Part shown: positions 43,411-54,779 of the stretch, piece by piece
How the letters are laid out: each line of letters begins with the position of its first letter
Position numbering within the stretch: the first letter of the stretch is position 1
Assembly (NCBI GenBank): GCA_951406725.2
Contig: OX597828.1
Span: 38,068,001-38,132,000, forward strand
DNA from: Octopus vulgaris
Taxonomy: Eukaryota
DNA length: 64,000 bases
Direction of reading: 5' to 3'
The notes under the pieces: generated by a model
What the model was told of the DNA's origin: nothing
Databases searched by the model: none
Seen by the model: only the letters and a program-made list of their open reading frames with translations
Translations under genes and position numbers: made by a program

Positions 43411-43803
43411 TATCTTCTCTATCATTCCTGAATTGTTGATCACAAATAAATTGCAGAATTCATAGAATGGAAGAAGAGAAACTATTACAGACGTAAACGA
43501 ATTCAGTGGTCTCCAAAGGGAATTGAATCAGAATCGTTATCCCTTCGCTATGAAACATTGCTTTCACAATTACAGATTATACTCTGGGATGTTCCAACTC
43601 ACTGTTCGGAACCATTACAAGGATAATCTAGTTTCAAACTACATCGTTTCATTTAAGCCACAAAAGCTTTCTGGATGACATGAAAGCAACACATTGTTAT
43701 CTCCCTTTAGTCTTGAAACACATGAGCTTTATATCTACGTAAGCATCTATTTAATTTGTTTATTAATGGATATATGGGCTCTACAGTTACTGATAACATG
43801 CTC

Positions 43804-43967
43804 GACTGCTACTGAAACTAGGTTAATCTGACGTGTATATATATTATCGTGGCGGCCGATCTAATAATTGCTGGACGCCTGTTAGTATTACCAGGCGTCC
43901 CCGGATGCCGGCCGCCGGAATTTTTTAGTTATATAATCTTCCCTCTGCTAAGAATTCCGTCATCTGA
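43804..43967 (+). repeat. Left copy of viral intergenic region (164 bp direct repeat)
   Basis: GACTGCTACTGAAACTAGG...GTCATCTGA matches 45948-46122 with about 6 substitutions and one 11-bp indel (manual alignment). Confidence 0.97.
43873..43900 (+). promoter_or_regulatory. Rolling-circle origin stem-loop 1 (nonanucleotide TAGTATTAC)
   Basis: Perfect 9-bp stem GGACGCCTG/CAGGCGTCC around loop TTAGTATTAC; nonanucleotide at 43883-43891. Confidence 0.95.
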
Positions 43968-43971
43968 CAAG

Positions 43972-45103
43972 ATGCCTCACACTCCTATGTATCGACGCTT
44001 CTGTTTTACTTTGAATAATTACACAGACGAAGAATTAGCCGTGCTCATATAGATACATAGGATCTGAAAAGGATAACTTCCAGTATTGTTCGAAGGAAGG
44101 GAATGTAGTTATCGAGTGTGGTGAAAGGAATTTGTCGTCTAAAGAGAAGAAGTCTAAAGTTTCTGATAACATTCGTAATATCGTATGGAATTCTACTAGT
44201 AACCCGGAGGAGTATGTTTTAACCCACGACGACTCCGATCTAATAAATGCCTATCGTAATAATGTTCGAGCAGTAGGTGATTTGTTTGTAGAATCCAAGA
44301 AGAAGCGTACTTTCGATTTAATTGTGATGGAATATGAGAACGTAGTTTGGCAGCGATGGCAGTTTCGTCTTATACAGGAGCTGAAAAAGAAGCCGGACCC
44401 TCGGAAAATAATTTGGTATTGCGATCCAGTCGGTAATTCTGGTAAAGCCTACTTGTCCCGTTATTTGCAAACTATTGACGGTATACGTTTTGAGAATGGC
44501 CGTTCTGTAGATATCAAGTACAAGTATGACGGCCGGCGTATAGTTGTATTCGATTATACGCGTTCTCAAAAGGATCACATTAACTATGACGTAATCGAAA
44601 GTATCAAGAACGGATTAATATGTTCCACCAAGTATGTGCCTGTGACCAAGACTTTTCCTATACCGCACGTTGTCGTTTTCGCTAATTTTGAACCTGACCG
44701 TTCTAAGATGTCTGCTGACCGCTGGGACATTCGTTTTCTCACTACAGAAGACTATCAAAAGATATATGAAAATATTGACAATGAGTTCGTGATCGCAACT
44801 ACCCAACCAACACTTGCCCCCGCCCCAACCCCTGCAGATCATACGCCGTCCTTTACAGCAAGTGAGAAAGAACTGATCGACCAGCTCGACCGCAGTGAAT
44901 GCGAACTGTTTGCAGAAAGTGGATGGGCTGCTATCGGAGAATCTACTCCGAAAAATGATTCGCTAGATGCAATTCATTCACCGTTTAATATCTTCTCGTA
45001 TAACACAACAACAATTTGCAAGTGTAAGCAGTACGAGACTGAAAATAAATACCTGAAGCAACGCATCTTGGAATTGAAAGAAGAACTCAAACGAAAAATG
45101 TAA
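43972..45103 (+). pseudogene. rep: CRESS-virus replication initiator protein (HUH endonuclease + SF3 helicase), disrupted at the N-terminus
   Basis: ATG 43972 gives MPHTPMYRRFCFTLNN (motif I at 44005-44019) then TAG at 44050-44052. RAHID is read from 44040 in another frame. A third frame gives GSEKDNFQYCSKEG (motif III YCSK 44084-44095) and stays open to TAA at 45101-45103, with Walker A GNSGKA (44432-44449), Walker B IVVFDY (44540-44557), motif C VVVFAN (44669-44686) and SADRW. Motif II is absent. Confidence 0.93.
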
Positions 45104-45115
45104 AATTGAGAAGAA

Positions 45116-45154
45116 AATAAAATTTATTGAACTGAAGTACAGTGTTTGTTTATT
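45116..45154. terminator. Bidirectional polyadenylation region between rep and cap
   Basis: AATAAA(+) 45116-45121 back-to-back with TTTATT 45123-45128 (AATAAA on -); second minus-strand AATAAA at 45149-45154 overlapping the cap stop; GT-rich tract at 45141-45150. Confidence 0.7.
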
Positions 45155-45947
45155 ATTCTGCCTCAGCCAGGTATTGTTCACCGTTTCTTCTTCCTGTTAG
45201 TTTTATTGTTATCCAAGTTTTAACCAGTATGATCTCTTCCAGTTCGGCCTGTAGTGTGCACGCTACTCCGTTGTAGCTGTTCTTTGACCAAGCCTTATCC
45301 TTCACAGAACCCCACGGTGCCTGTGCTATGTCGTATGTTTGACTTCATTTCAGAAATAACTTCGGATACGGGTTCTTATCGAATTCATCGTGGCTTACAT
45401 CATGTGTTTGCCACGACCATTTTGGTTCGTAACTTATTGCCACTCTTCTTTCCGTTTTTAAATGTCTCATCCTGCAGTTATTCATTTTAATCATCTCTTT
45501 GTATTCGATATGTCTTCCTTGTAGGTCCCTGTCGTAGGCCCAGTATATTCGGGGTATCATTTCACCGTGTTTGATTATTGTAGGTAATTCGAATGTAGAT
45601 CCGAATCTAATAACTTCGAAGCAGACCCACGTATGTTTAAGTATGTCTCCTTCTGTTGGTTTAACTAGTTTTATCAGTTTCTGCCAGTTGCATGTTAGCG
45701 AGAATTGTGTTTCGCTTTTAATAATTTTCACAGGTTCCTCCATCCAATAGGTTTTGTATAGGTAATTTGGAGACCTGTGTTCTCTCGGTTTCTTTCTCCA
45801 AAGGAAGCGCCTTTTTTTTAATAATCTTTTGGCTTTAATGTATCTCATAGTTGAGAATGGTATTAATTTCCATTGTCTTTTCGACCTCCACCTCCTTCTA
45901 TGAGGCCGTCGTCTTGTACCATACGCCCACACTGATCTTATCGGCAT
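45153..45947 (-). pseudogene. cap: CRESS-virus capsid protein, 264 codons with one in-frame TGA at codon 201
   Basis: Arg/Lys-rich N-terminus (RRRPHRRRWRSKR...KKRRFLWRKK); ambisense to rep; ATG abuts the intergenic region. Manual translation past the TGA (45345-45347) gives 63 more codons (SQTYDIAQAPWGSVKDKAWSKNSYNGVACTLQAELEEIILVKTWITIKLTGRRNGEQYLAEAE) to a TAA at 45153-45155 overlapping AATAAA. Confidence 0.85.
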
Positions 45948-46122
45948 GACTGCTACTGAAACTAGGTTAATCTGACGTGTATATATATTATCTTGGCGGC
46001 CAATCTAATAATTGCTGGACGCCTGCTAGTATTACCAGACGTCCCCGGATGCCGGCCGCCGGAAGTGACGTTTCTGTTTTTAGTAATATAATCTTCCCTC
46101 TGCTAAGAATTCTGTCATCTGA
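45948..46122 (+). repeat. Right copy of viral intergenic region (175 bp direct repeat)
   Basis: Starts immediately after the cap start codon (CAT 45945-45947); matches 43804-43967. Confidence 0.97.
46017..46044 (+). promoter_or_regulatory. Rolling-circle origin stem-loop 2 (nonanucleotide TAGTATTAC)
   Basis: GGACGCCTG-CTAGTATTAC-CAGACGTCC; one stem mismatch at 46039; nonanucleotide at 46027-46035. Confidence 0.93.
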
Positions 46123-46279
46123 AGACTTTATCGAATAGACGTAGAAAATGCTACTACTCGGTCAAACGACGTGGTGTTTCAGACACACCATGCTTCCACC
46201 TATGTAAGGAACATACTACAAATACTGACATGCAATGCTTTATCATATGAATTACAGCATGACGACGGTCTGTATATAT

Positions 46280-46827
46280 TCTTTTATACTCTAGGTACAA
46301 AGCCCAAAATTTGGGGGGAAGGGGACCAGTCGTTTAGATCGACTCCAGTACGTAACTGTTACTTAATTTATTGACCTCGAAAGGAGGAAAAGCAAAGACG
46401 ACCTCCTCGTCCACACCATCTCTTTTATTCTTTTCTACTCTAGGCACAAAGCCCAAAATTTGGGGGGAGGGGACAAGTCGTTTAGATCGACACCAGTACG
46501 TAACTGGTACTTAATTTATCGACCCCGGAAGGATGAAAGGCAAAGTCGACCTCGGTGGAATGTGAACTCAGAACGTAAAGACAGACGAAATACCTATTTC
46601 TTTATTACTCACAAGGGGCTAAACATAAAGGGGACAAACAAGAGCAGACAAACGGATTCAGTCGATTACATCGACCCCAGTGAGTAACTGGTACTTAATT
46701 TATCGACCCCGAAAGGATGAAAGGCAAAGTCGACCTCGGCGGAATTTGAACTCAGAACATAACGACAGACGAAATACCGCTAAGCATTTCGCCCGGTGTG
46801 CTAACGTTTCTGCCAGCTCGCCGCCTG
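46280..46827 (-). mobile_element. SINE family B multimer right of the viral insert
   Basis: Three core units ending in GCCAGCTCGCCGCCT. Confidence 0.85.
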
Positions 46828-47114
46828 ACAGTCTGTATGTAAGGCACCCGTCTTCATTTGTCGGGAGTCTACTTCTAAGTGTTTATACATTCTCACAGTT
46901 GCCACATCGAAATATAATAAAGTAAACTTGATCAATGTGCAAGATAATTATCTCTTTGCGCTTACTGTAAGCAGGGTGGTTTGCAACACCGCATTTATGC
47001 TCTGATGGTCGATGAGATTTTTGGTGGTTTCAAAGGGACATTAGTAATGCAAGTGTGCAAAAACCGTTTCAGAATTGATACGAAGTTATGGTCACTTTGG
47101 AGAAGGACAGAGGT

Positions 47115-47505
47115 GACTGAAACGTGGCTGTGTGCTAAGAAGCTTGCTTCCAAACTATATGGTTCCATGTACAGTCTCATTACGTGGCACCTTGGTCAAG
47201 TGTCTTCTACTATAGCCTCGAGCCAACCAAAGGCTTGTGAGTGGATTTGGTGAACGAAAACTAAAAGAAGCCCGCCGTATATATATGTAAATTTTTGTGT
47301 GTCTGCGTTTGTCTCCCCTCCCTCCACCATCACTTGACAACCAATGTTTGTGTGTTTACGTCCCCGTAACTTAGCGGTTCGGCAAAATAGACCGATAGAA
47401 TAAGTATTAGGCTTACAAAGAGTTAGTCTTGGGGTCGGGCTCGATTTGTTCGATTAAAGGCGGTACTGCAGCTTGGCCGCAGTCAAATGACTGAAGTAAG
47501 TAAAG
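47115..47505 (+). mobile_element. tRNA-derived SINE family A
   Basis: Diverged full-length copy with the same body and tail. Confidence 0.8.
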
Positions 47506-47879
47506 ACCAATGAACTGCCAAGGGCAGAAAGATGACTCTTCTAGGATTTGAACCACAGAAGACAAAGCTTAAAGCCATGCGATAATTAGTCTGATATCCA
47601 ACTGTTTCTGCCACACCACTGACTTCAAATTTGGCAATAATTAACTCATAATTAGTAGCAAAGTGGCTCCCTTCGCTTGCACTGATTTGATTTATATCTC
47701 CCCCCACCCCACCCCCAGTCTCTCTAACCCCCTTCCGCTTTCTCTCCCCTTCTCTCTTTCTCTCTCTCCCTCTCTTTCTCTCTCTCTCTCTCCCTCTCTC
47801 TATTTATCTATCTTTCTATACATCTCTATCTCTCTTTAATTTTGTTTTCATACTTGTTGGTTACATTACGGTTCTTGTT

Positions 47880-47917
<38 letters not shown>

Positions 47918-48150
47918 TATCATCATCATCATTATTGGTGATGTTGTTATCAAAAACTAATTATCTACGCTAGAAGAAAAAAGAAAATGATAAAACAGTT
48001 AGCAGTTAAACACATCTGATTTATACGCCACAAAAATCTAGAACCAATTTATATTGATTGTAAAGCCTGGTGGTTACATGCGCTAATACTATTGCTCGTG
48101 TTCTTGTTGTTGGTTATTTCAACAGCAACTATTACTATCATCATATATAG

Positions 48151-48236
<86 letters not shown>

Positions 48237-48681
48237 TCGCACATTTATTTCTTTTTTATTGTACGTTCTCTCAGGTCTAAGATAAATTACGATACAACAC
48301 ACACAGTTTAACCACAATTATACGTACAATCATCACATGAACACACACAATCACATAGGTGCACCAACACACATGCGCACACACTTCTGTACATATAACC
48401 GGCGGTCGAAAGCTTATACGTACATTTATGGGTGTATAAAATAAGCGTGTGTGAGTGTGTATGTGTGTATGTGTGTGTATGTGTGTGTGTGTGTCAATAT
48501 ATATACGTATATATATATGTATATGTATATAAATATATATACATACATAAATATATACACACATATACATATATATACAGATAGATAGAGAGAACGAAAT
48601 ATACATACATGTATGGATATAGGAACATACACAAACATATATATACATGTATATATATATATATACACGCAAAAATATATG

Positions 48682-48719
<38 letters not shown>

Positions 48720-48745
48720 TATATATATGTATGCATGTATGTATG

Positions 48746-48785
<40 letters not shown>

Positions 48786-48835
48786 TTCATATATATATCT
48801 ATGTATGTATGTATATATGTGTATATATATACATA

Positions 48836-48878
<43 letters not shown>

Positions 48879-49280
48879 ATACACACACACACGCACCACT
48901 AGGCACACAGAATACTTACGTGTGGACACGAAGAGAAAATACCAATATACAAGCAAAACCAGAAAATCAAACCCCCAAACCTACACACAGTTAATCAGAC
49001 ACACACGCTGATATATACACACTCCTATACATAATCTCACACATATACACATACATTTCCCTATTATACACGGACAGAAACGCATCAAAGATGATACATT
49101 CATATATATATACATAGTTATGTACACACACACACACATGCATATAAGTATATATATATATTTATATGTGTGTGTGTGTGCATATATATACAAATATATA
49201 TACATATATACATATGTGTATGCATATATATACATATGTGTCTGTGTGTGTCTGTGTGTGTATGTATATATTTATTTATT

Positions 49281-49312
<32 letters not shown>

Positions 49313-49540
49313 TGTATGTATGTATGTGTGTGTATGTACGTATGTATATGTCTGTATAAACGTATGGTTTTATGTATACTAACGAACATAGAACTCATAA
49401 AACCACACAGGTTGAGAGACAGGCGCACTCGTAAATGATAATAAACTCTTAAACGCATACTTAATAGGGAATACACGCATACATAAAATGATATATGTAG
49501 CTACTCACACACGCAATAACATATAGAGAGACATGAATAC

Positions 49541-49571
<31 letters not shown>

Positions 49572-49801
49572 AGCATAAATACACACACATACACAAGCAT
49601 AAATACACACACACACAAGCATAAATACACACACACACACACCAACGAACGGTCACACCGAATGTTATTAACACATACACACACACAGGCTCTCACTCTT
49701 ACATTTAAAGACCCAATTTCAAAAATGACGACGTCCAAATACACACGCACGTGCGCGTACACGCACGCACGCACAGACATGAACACACACACGTGAACAT
49801 T

Positions 49802-49843
<42 letters not shown>

Positions 49844-49959
49844 GCACGATACATAGAAATATGCTCTGAAGGCAAAAGACATATTTGTGGTACCAACCAG
49901 GAACACATAGACACAGATAAACGCCTATATACAAACAAGCATATTCACATAGACACACA

Positions 49960-50012
<53 letters not shown>

Positions 50013-50398
50013 ACAAATACATACGCAACTAAGCAGATTAATAGATTAATAAAAAAATTAAGAAATATTTCATTATTGCATACTTCAAGCATTCAATTTG
50101 GCAGACATGTGTATTGGACTTACGCATACATACATACATACATAAATACACACATACATACATACATACATACATAAATACACACATACATACATACATA
50201 CATACATACATACATACATACATACATAAATACACACATACATACATACATATATTCATACATAAGTATGTGTATGTGTGTGCGTATATGTATGTATGTA
50301 TATATATATATAACTGTATATACATTTATATACACACGCAAGCGCACACTTGTATATTTGATCGTAAGTATACATATGTTCAAATATATTTATCTATA

Positions 50399-50456
<58 letters not shown>

Positions 50457-50606
50457 GCATATATATATGTATGCATGTATGTATATATTTATGTATATAT
50501 ATATATAAATATACATATAATATAGATAAATAAATATATATATATATGTAAATATATTTATATATATATATATATATACACATATATATAAATACATATA
50601 AATATA

Positions 50607-50661
<55 letters not shown>

Positions 50662-51949
50662 ATATATGCTCGTGCTCTGTCTCTACAGGTTTAATGCAAA
50701 TCATGTTCCTAGCAAAAAATCTTATCAGACTTAATATCGAGTTTAAAAGTAAAGTGAAAGAAGAGGAGCCCCCCCCCGCCGTGATCGTCGTCGTCGTCAT
50801 CATCATCATCATCATCATCATTACACGCATGACAACGACTACCACCACCAACAACCGACAGCTTCCATCGTAGCAACGAATGGGCTTCTATATCAGTCAT
50901 GAACAACCTTTAATTAGAAGCGGCCCGCATGGGACATGAGCCCTCATTAGATGGGTCACACTATAAAGATTTCTACATAACTTTTCGTCTGCCTGCTATT
51001 CAGAAAGTCCCGTGGACCGCAGTTTGTTCAGGACTGTTCTCCATTATTGCTCAACCTGTTAGAAATAATAGTCAAATATACTTCAAATTACACCTCTGTC
51101 GCCTTCGAAAAAGGACACACATTGAACAATGTGCTTTGGTATTATATGAAAATGGGGTGTTAGTCACGGCTAGAGTGCCATTGATTTTATGTGTTATTGG
51201 TTATGGCTGGCTCAGGGTTAATCACAATTTTTTTGTACTATATGCACGAGGCCGGAAATTTGTTGTGGATGAGGTTAGTCAATTACATCGACCCCTAACG
51301 TTTATTTTAGCGACCCCGGAAGAATGAAGGGCAAAGTCGACCTCGACCGAATTTGAACTCAGAACCTAAAGTGGGGACGAAACGACCTCGACCGAATTTG
51401 AACTCAGAACCTAAAGTGGGGACGAAATGCCGTGAAGCATTTTATCGAGCGCCGTAACGATTTCGTCATCGCTTCGTCTTTACAACTACAACAACAGCAA
51501 CAACAACAACAACGACAACAGCAACAACGACGACAACGACAACAATGGCCGCTCTTCTCCTGAACCCTCACACCCTACCAAAATGTGCTGATGCTCTCTG
51601 ACCCACGTTCGCCAAGGGGTTGATCATTAAAACAAATTAGTTTATTAGGTGATTTGCATAAATTAAATTAGGATTTGTGGTCTGATGAATACTAATTGTA
51701 GACGTACACACACCAACACACGTGCGCACAACTGCCTGCATTTGTGTGCATGCGTTGAGTCTGTGTGCATGCGTATTTCTGTGCGCTTGCACATGTGTAT
51801 ATGCGTGTTTGTGTGTGTGTGCGTGCGTGTGTGCGTGTGTGTGTATGTGTGTGCGAGTGTGTGTGTATCTGTGTGTACATTAATACAGTAAAAGAAAGTC
51901 AGCTCGTCTGTAGTTCGAGCATTACATGGTACGAATGTTTTGCAGCATA

Positions 51950-53132
51950 CAGGGGTTGGACAAAATAATGGAAACACCTTAAAATCTCAAACAAATTCAT
52001 TTTAATATTGGGTAGGACAGCCTTTGGCGAAAATTACACCTTGAATTCTACGAGGTATGGGCTCGTACAAAGTTTAAATTATTTCCAAAGGAATTTTTGT
52101 CCATTCTTCAGCTAAAACAGTCTCCAGTTCTTGTAATGATGATGGTGGAAGATATCAACTGTGGTGGCCAGATAAGATGTTCAACTTCGCTAGAATGTTC
52201 CTCGTGCCATTCAATAACAACTTTAGCGGTGTGCATTGGTTCATTATCATCCTGAAAGATTGCGTTTCCCTCTGGAAACAGTTCCGCAACCATACGATAA
52301 ATTTGATCAAATAAATTGCTTAAATAGTCTTGACGATTAACTCTGCCATGAAGGGAAACCATTGGGCCAGCGGATTTCCAAAGTTGTAGCCCTCCCGCCC
52401 AAGATCATCACAGATCTTCCTCCATGTTTAACAGTTGGAAGAAGGCAATCTAGGTCAAATGCTTCGTTTGGCTGTCTCGGCTGGTGGTCAGAAATAAGAT
52501 AAAAGATGACTCGTCCGAGAAAATAACATTCTTCCACTGCTCTAGGGACCAATTCCGTAGGTTTTTACGCTACTCTAAACGCTTTGCAACGTTTGTTTTT
52601 GAAAGTAGTGCTTTTCTGATTGCAGCCTTCCCATGAAATCCGGTTTTGTGAAGCTCCCGGCGAACAGTCTCTGTGGAAACTGGGTTCTCGAGGTAGTCAC
52701 TAAGCTCTGTACTAATTTTGGGAGCTGTATTTTTGTGATCCTTTCTAACAATTCGCGTAAGAGTCCGACGGTTCCTTTCTGAAAGTTTTGGTTTTCTTCC
52801 GGAGTTTTTTCCCTCTCTCTCAAAGGCTCACTTTCAAGACAGTTCTTCTTGATACACCTAACATTTCGGCTGTTTTCGTTACGCTAGCGCCCGCCATACA
52901 AGCACCAACAATTTGACTTCTTTAAAAGTCCAATGAATCTGTCATTTTAATGAATTTAATAACCTTTTTCTGATGATATCTGTAAAGAAATAACAACTTT
53001 AGCAAACCATATTAAGTAACACTAATAATAAATCAAAAAACATAAAAATAACCAAGCTTTTGATGGTTTTATCGATATCTCAAAATTATGATGCTATGAA
53101 GCTAGGTGTTTCCATTATTTTGTCCAACCCCT
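51950..53132 (-). mobile_element. Tc1-like DNA transposon, both TIRs present, transposase degraded
   Basis: 29-bp TIR AGGGGTTGGACAAAATAATGGAAACACCT at 51951-51979 and its reverse complement at 53104-53132, TA at both flanks. Minus-strand peptides WKNVIFSDESSF, PTVKHGGRSVMI, IFQDDNEPMHTAK, LIWPPQ occur in shifted frames. Confidence 0.92.
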
Positions 53133-53691
53133 TATGTTCCGATTCTCTAAGTTCAAATCTCGCCGAGGTCAACTTTACATTACCACTATATCTTTTTCTC
53201 ACTCTTTCCATTTCCCTGGAAAACATCGGTTATGTTCAGAGATACAGAGGGTGTACTCACCCAGGTTTTAAATGTCCCAAATCCGATGTATATCACAACG
53301 GCACCCTTCCGATTTTAACTTCTGTTAAGGCCCCGTTCTTAGTAAACCACGATACTCTACCTCAGCCTTACACAAAATGAACAGCGGGGGCTGACCTGCT
53401 AAATATGGCAATTAAATACCATAAACACAACAACCTAACGCGTAGTGATCCGTTATACACTTTGTCCGACATGCCAGCATGATAGTAACACTAATAATGG
53501 TTACAAATTTTGGTAATTTTCTAGTAATTTTGGGGAAGTGGGCAAGTCAATTACGTCGACCCCAGTAATCAACCGGTGATTATTTAAGCGCACCCGAAAG
53601 GGTGAAAGACAAAGTTGACCTCGACAGAATTTGAACCCTGATCGTAAAGCCAGGCGAAATACCAGTTTGCACCACCTTAGTGTACCACCTT

Positions 53692-53728
53692 ACAACAACA
53701 ACAACAACTACTACTACTACTAATGATG

Positions 53729-53797
<69 letters not shown>

Positions 53798-53952
53798 TGA
53801 AGATGATGGGAGGAATTAGAAGAAGAAGAAGAAGAAGAAGAAGAAGAAGAAGAAGAAGAAGGGGAAGGGAAAGAAGAAGAAAAAGAACAACAACAGGAGG
53901 AGGAGGGGGAAGAGGAGGAAGAGGAGGAGGAAGTGGAGGGGAGGAGGAGGAT
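53692..53952. repeat. (AAT)n/(AGA)n/(GGA)n compound microsatellite
   Basis: Trinucleotide runs; a further (AAT)n/(ATT)n inverted tract lies at 54360-54637. Confidence 0.95.
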
Positions 53953-54358
53953 AACTGAAGCAAAAATATAAGAAGTATAAGTCGGGAAGGATGAATAACG
54001 AAAGAAATAAGATAGGAGAATGAAACGGGATGAAAAAGAAATTAAGAAACAAGAGATGAAAGCAAGAGAGACTGATGAAACAGATGAAAGATGGCATAGA
54101 CTCCATCTGGAGAGAATTTTTCTTTTGATGTAAGAACACATGGAAGCATAACGGATGTGAAAGGTCGGAGCCCAGGGTCAATTCCGTATCAAGTGTCAGC
54201 CATTTTTTAAATAAAATATTTCATAGCTTCATTGCGTTCTTTAGGCTTTGAGTTAATTCTGTCAAGTAACAGGAATACTGACAGTATATGGCTTAGGGAT
54301 GGCAGATCATTCACACGTAAATATATTTATATACCGACCTATGGAAACTTTACAGCCC

Positions 54359-54427
<69 letters not shown>

Positions 54428-54488
54428 TAGTAATAATAATAAAATTAATAATAATAATAATAATAGTAACAATAATAAATTTAATAAT

Positions 54489-54546
<58 letters not shown>

Positions 54547-54572
54547 TTAATAAAAAATTATTATTATTACTA

Positions 54573-54618
<46 letters not shown>

Positions 54619-54779
54619 CATTATTATTATTATTATTAAGTGAGAGTGCTGCGCATACCATCAAAGGGAGACTGAAGTAAAATATACGAAGCCCAGTACA
54701 GATTTCTATTTATTGTTATACCAAATGTTTTGCTTTCATTATTTATTTTTGTGTATTTTAGGCTGTCTCACTACAGATA

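Follow-up and report, generated by a model that had tools for sequence, protein, structure and literature searches.

The stretch of DNA analysed here, 64,000 nucleotides of a 78-Mb contig of Octopus vulgaris and hereafter the window, contains between positions 43804 and 46122 an endogenous CRESS-DNA virus joined to the host chromosome, whose long intergenic region is present at both ends as a direct repeat. This LTR-like appearance raises the question of whether the locus is a mobile element that uses its intergenic region as terminal repeats, or a captured viral genome whose ends lie next to the start codons of its two genes for some other reason, or by chance.

Architecture of the element

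From left to right the element comprises an intergenic region, a rep gene on the plus strand, a short 3′ region, a likely cap gene on the minus strand, and the intergenic region again, such that the insert amounts to about 1.08 units of a CRESS-DNA virus genome. The left copy of the long intergenic region (43804–43967), with a predicted two-way promoter and an origin, is 164 nt long and lacks 11 nt of the 175-nt right copy (45948–46122); the two differ by seven substitutions in 164 aligned columns together with the single 11-nt gap, one of the seven adjoining the gap and depending on the alignment. The boundaries reported in the preliminary description are exact in the sequence: the right copy begins at the base adjoining the cap ATG (45947, minus strand), and the left copy stops at 43967, 4 nt short of the rep ATG at 43972. 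Anchored extension past the repeat ends gives a score of 0 on both sides. The short 3′ intergenic region (45104–45155) contains convergent AATAAA signals, at 45116–45121 on the plus strand and 45149–45154 on the minus strand.

Among the features by which LTR elements are recognized, direct terminal repeats carrying predicted promoters are present; the ends are neither inverted nor of the TG...CA type and have no target-site duplication beside them. The reported lack of a target-site duplication holds up, with a 13×13 boundary slide returning one 4-mer, which is the chance level, and inverted repeats were looked for at the element ends and not found. Rep and the likely cap are the sole genes that the repeats enclose, and neither an integrase nor a reverse transcriptase is encoded.

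A stem-loop with TAGTATTAC occurs in each of the two repeats. The left one (43873–43900, plus strand) displays TAGTATTAC in the loop of a perfect 9-bp stem (z −3.65), and the right one (46017–46044) has one mismatch in its stem (z −1.52). Core promoters were predicted from the general spacing of TATA and initiator elements to transcription starts, which places the starts 10 nt before each ATG. The predicted rep core promoter (43930–43962, plus strand) has TATATAA at 43930 and a +1 site near 43962, and the predicted cap-side core promoter of the left copy (43813–43843, minus strand), with a TATA element at −30 and a TCAGT initiator, faces the flank with its +1 site at 43813. The right copy has a predicted outward +1 site at 46117 and a single T-to-A change in its TATA element at 46085. 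The element ends lie 9 nt (left) and 5 nt (right) beyond these outward +1 sites. The right repeat also keeps an ETS-CRE 13-mer, CCGGAAGTGACGT, at 46059–46071, a composite motif described in human promoters (PMC3464117, accessible part), which is missing from the left repeat; since no gap is listed there in organisms C and D, its loss from the left copy is older than the split from those organisms.

The rep and likely capsid genes

The rep gene is in two pieces on the plus strand, a 5′ piece (43972–44049) that contains motif I (RRFCFTLNNY) and ends in a stop, and a long frame (44045–45103) with motif III and the SF3 helicase. The long frame has 116 Rep matches, most of them with PF02407; the best is 98% identical and labelled Octopus vulgaris, and the nearest named ones are from an uncultured marine virus and a crucivirus. 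A Pfam search with the remaining rep frame returned no match, and a search of viral_contigs no relative of the element. The helicase motifs seem nanovirus/alphasatellite-like. Lists of the Rep motifs are given in PMC7955980 and PMC5923481. Against a profile built from 84 of the matching Reps, the element aligns in motifs I and III and in the helicase; profile positions 35–87 (about 53, including the motif II region) are missing, and the frame shifts at this point between the two pieces. The motif II region has been lost through decay.

Among the rep long-frame differences listed (at least 26), seven are silent, 18 change a residue and one is a stop, corresponding to a dN/dS of 0.7–1.3 for the differences listed. 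The rep start codon is lost in run X12. With neutral change of 2.1%, a frame of 352 codons would be expected to stay open in 44% of cases. The gene is broken and drifting neutrally, and domestication of rep is rejected on the dN/dS of about 1, the stop, and the start codon lost in X12. A short local duplication within rep (44606–44628) is seen in run X20, in one low-depth contig that may be an artefact.

The minus-strand gene (45153–45947), with an arginine-rich N-terminus and an interrupting stop at 45345–45347, is likely the capsid gene, also in view of its position. Five relatives of its product are encoded at other places in the genome, one of them beside a rep (locus L021), and the ESM Atlas provides a lead to Circo_capsid-bearing clusters at 0.90, with PF02443 on 29–31% of members. 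There are five matches among 1.84 billion representatives; comparisons with Pfam and PDB gave no match, a word-indexed search no relative, and two AlphaFold models (pLDDT 35 and 37) are uninformative.

Flanking sequences and the position of the ends

The left flank (43411–43803) is single-copy in our searches and neither rep- nor cap-like. Within the right flank (46123–46276), positions 46177–46266 are 68% like old dispersed sequence on contig C7, and there is further resemblance to dispersed sequence on C1; this resemblance to sequences on other contigs indicates that the right flank is likely host DNA. Neither flank scored against the Rep profile, six capsid-like proteins, or Pfam in 12 frames, so that the flanks were rejected as decayed rep or cap, and searches with the flank proteins found no family or homologue. 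The preliminary description had named a single copy with further decayed viral sequence in its flanks as evidence against a dedicated mechanism; the first part of this is what we find, and the second, for rep and cap, is not. We note that a plus-strand frame of the left flank (43412–43801) has two stops in 130 codons (P 0.02 versus shuffles), and is possibly a decayed host or mobile-element gene split by the virus. Element and flanks form a unique island of 2.87 kb lying between copies of a host repeat. These flanking repeats were considered as parts of the element and rejected, being 81% identical to each other and 86–89% to copies elsewhere in the window. No empty insertion site was found, and junction microhomology or deletion is therefore unreadable.

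Both ends fall no more than 10 nt from a start codon, for which P is about 1e-4 under uniform breaks, a post hoc value without correction for the number of windows scanned. The earlier proposal that random capture would not be expected to produce such ends is supported by this value, with chance as a less probable account. Among the mechanisms put forward, a link to transcription fits, with ends 5 and 9 nt beyond predicted transcription starts, whereas origin-linked integration does not, as neither end is at the nick site, and for the same reason rolling-circle release is no explanation of the ends. PMC3187698 reports concatemers for these viruses, and places the commonest double-stranded DNA breaks of the begomovirus mini-chromosome where transcription and replication factors have access. 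Their position past the predicted starts gives the ends of the octopus element a non-random look, and suggests that the captured piece had broken at the edges of the promoters.

Copy number and other CRESS relics

Ends shared among several copies, or solo copies of the intergenic region, had been proposed as signs of a dedicated mechanism. None were found in searches of the genome: 2/2 candidate places for the repeat lie in the window (a lower bound, as diverged copies are missed), and the whole element retrieved itself and one rep fragment of 68% identity and nothing more (likewise a lower bound). The origin motif occurs at three places in the genome, two here and one in an unrelated relic on C12, compared with three for a reversed control.

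Protein searches revealed at least 12 other CRESS loci, two of which are mutual duplicates, giving at least 11 independent ones. Terminal repeats were sought in eight of the 12, with simple or host-type repeats only being found, and the remaining four are short helicase fragments. The readable relic ends are mid-gene or in the intergenic region, and their boundaries are unrelated to those of the element. None of the 22 ends of the 11 independent loci is at a start codon, and the three that fall within the intergenic region are no excess (P 0.22); inclusion of the present element gives 5 of 24 there (P 0.03). Both ends of L021 (C11, near 25610200–25612400) are mid-gene, L024 ends in mid-cap and about 25 nt beyond the origin motif, L023 has an end about 113 nt before the cap ATG, and L038 runs from about 90 nt ahead of the rep ATG into mid-rep. 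The proposal of a proviral or transposon-like lifestyle thus receives support neither from further copies or solo repeats nor from the ends of other relics.

The relics are of varied content. L021:4200–6400 consists of a partial cap, a 3′ intergenic region and a partial rep, and joins directly a degraded frame that by eye resembles a G-protein-coupled receptor. L024:4400–5330 (C12, near 6092400–6093300) is an integrated fragment derived from a related virus; its cap lies on the origin strand, and of its rep just the first few and the last dozen codons are left, resembling a captured defective (sub-genomic) molecule. L022 and L023 (C31) are duplicated segments 96% identical to each other, each with a nearly whole capsid-like frame and part of the intergenic region, and ending near a poly(A) signal. 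L038:1385–1795 (C14, near 64337800) contains about 400 nt of intergenic region and rep start of the same lineage, and sits inside what looks like an ISXO2/Merlin-type transposase. In L027:2500–4480 a 140-nt tandem array, with a unit that is not rep-like in translation, adjoins a decayed rep fragment.

Age and fixation

The stretch or part of it is present in 20 runs from eight studies with four organism labels, and 8 of the 24 listed runs were examined. Both junctions are bridged by contigs in 3/3 runs (X5, X8 and X11, from organisms B, C and D and three studies), a count that leaves out X2, a possible source run, and in which X5 and X11 are of no recorded kind. Depth is similar on flanks and element in these three runs, with no sign of amplification. 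The presence of the same two junctions in three other organisms indicates one old, fixed insertion. Organism C differs from the window at 49 of 2135 nt (2.3%), and the repeats differ from each other at 7 of 164 positions (4.3%, 95% range 1.7–8.8%), which fits repeats that were identical at an insertion predating that split. Assuming identical repeats at the start, the age of the insertion is about 1.9 times (0.75–3.8) that of the organism C split, where orthology requires at least 1. The element is one dead viral insertion that has become fixed, rather than a new mobile element.

Probable viral transcription and a spliced host RNA

None of the listed runs holding the element is on record as RNA, and four, from three studies, are only guessed to be. 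In these, rep contigs are present in 4/4 and cap contigs in 3/4, as separate pieces that flank the convergent poly(A) signals, and the rep contig of X12 ends 15 nt past the signal, a weak hint. The contigs of X4 span the rep lesion without any difference from the window and therefore derive from the integrated copy. The rep contigs of X12 (from 43841) and X4 (from 43903) begin ahead of the predicted start at 43962, so that the start prediction is imperfect; contigs give neither strand nor transcription start, and the viral starts are predictions. In the four runs no contig covers the left flank or the greater part of the right repeat, which is not evidence of silence. Because each kept a promoter, both viral genes are likely still transcribed, and the earlier observation that each gene retains a full promoter and origin region is in keeping with the likely-RNA contigs that cover rep and cap.

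Directly after the right repeat is the first exon of a spliced host transcript (46127–46267, plus strand), followed by a GT donor at 46268. Contigs in three of the four runs start at 46127, 46131 or 46139, which is 10–22 nt past the predicted start at 46117 and 5–17 nt outside the right repeat, and leave the window sequence at 46268; run X20 has no first-exon contig. Runs X4 and X6, both from one study, join 46267 to 54762 across an 8.5-kb GT-AG intron with a pyrimidine tract, and this GT-AG joint shows that they contain spliced RNA; the continuation in both maps uniquely, to 54763. In run X12, from a second study, the contig leaves at the same donor, and what follows is not placeable in the window. 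The next exon (54762 to at least 54965, plus strand; AG acceptor at 54760–54761) lies in what is likely a decayed mariner remnant, with a Pfam HTH_48 match (E 0.0068) that is below the family cut-off. The joined exons yield short frames only, and the RNA is probably non-coding. Its promoter is now likely to be the half of the right repeat that faces outward.

Origin of the element

The architecture, the single copy, the shared junctions, the broken and neutral rep, and the GT-AG joint of 46267 to 54762 are established features of the locus, and we have weighed several accounts of how it arose. The one that we favor, and consider probable by a modest degree, is a one-off capture by host repair of a piece of a double-stranded viral multimer broken just past both transcription starts. 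The multimer would be the source molecule, breakage would have occurred at the promoter edges, and a single piece slightly over one genome long would have been captured by host break repair, such that the apparent LTRs would be one intergenic region seen twice, made by neither integrase nor reverse transcriptase. The retained promoters would then allow transcription of both genes, with the outward half of the right repeat providing the host RNA promoter. The same capture with its ends placed by chance, and noticed for its tidy look, is rather unlikely: the other relics (L021, L023, L024, L038) have arbitrary ends, very many windows were scanned, and tandem full-length circovirus integrants are described in the available part of PMC6372831. 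Against this is the proximity of both ends to start codons, with its P of about 1e-4 under uniform breaks, and their position 5–9 nt past predicted starts.

A different possibility is that the flanks are viral too, and the locus a chimera of two genome components, or of related viruses, that have a common region; homology would then stop at the start codons as it does in bipartite begomoviruses. The boundaries would be explained directly, an ATG stands on the cap strand 4 nt beyond the left end, the left flank, which is single-copy, contains a stop-poor frame, and the 2.87-kb unique island lies between host-repeat copies. We regard it as improbable, however, given flanks that score against no Rep profile, capsid-like protein or Pfam family in those searches, and a right flank like dispersed sequences on C7 and C1. 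Less probable still is a dedicated proviral or transposon-like lifestyle with LTR-like spread or excision, for which the exact ends, the two origins, and the transcription of both genes from the integrated copy can be cited. Such a lifestyle in this genome is largely refuted by the searches that found no second copy or solo repeat, the lack of target duplication or inverted ends, the absence of integrase and reverse transcriptase from the element, the one locus common to four organism labels with flat depth, and the broken, neutral rep. To return to capture of a multimer piece broken past both starts, its extension to CRESS multimers in general, which would break preferentially at these positions and yield transcribed, provirus-shaped integrants lending the host an outward promoter, is offered tentatively and as doubtful; with one case, and no second element with both ends at gene starts, a promoter-edge break rule is not established.

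Comparison with known systems

The accessible part of PMC6372831 describes tandem full-length endogenous circoviral genomes in carp and golden-line barbel, and endogenous elements with both rep and cap as rare, with four cases in a vertebrate survey. Like these fish elements, the octopus insert is fixed in the germline at an orthologous site and exceeds one unit of an ssDNA virus with ambisense rep and cap; unlike them, it doubles the intergenic region only and is in a cephalopod host, with membership of the Circoviridae not implied. With the Nicotiana GRD and yam EGV1/EGV2 sequences (PMC5014472, as far as available) it shares integrated, origin-bearing partial tandem repeats that are transcribed. 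Those geminivirus sequences form arrays of many copies, in which Rep shows signs of selection, whereas the octopus insert is one copy with a neutral rep and cap retained. The geminivirus-like transposon of Tuber melanosporum (PMC3198968, accessible text) is similarly Rep-bearing, with defined ends and no target duplication, but its ends are inverted over 37 bp, it carries genes for transposases and it occurs in many copies, compared with the direct repeats, one copy and lack of a transposase here. In the literature searched, which included few subscription papers and no supplements, we found no octopus CRESS element, no integrant of this architecture, and no CRESS-DNA intergenic region acting as a host-transcript promoter.

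Germline entry of ssDNA viruses that have no integrase is poorly resolved, and ends that track transcription starts would, if true, provide a testable rule for their integration. It is these ends, together with a likely viral promoter of a spliced host RNA, that give the locus its interest, and the element also preserves, nearly complete, a CRESS lineage associated with cephalopods. Capture of viral promoters is a familiar outcome with endogenous retroviruses, whose LTRs serve as promoters of host transcripts. As with those LTRs, the outward-facing 3′ viral repeat of the octopus element likely starts a spliced host RNA; in contrast to them, it is the intergenic region of an ssDNA virus, is not reverse-transcribed, and has no integrase ends.
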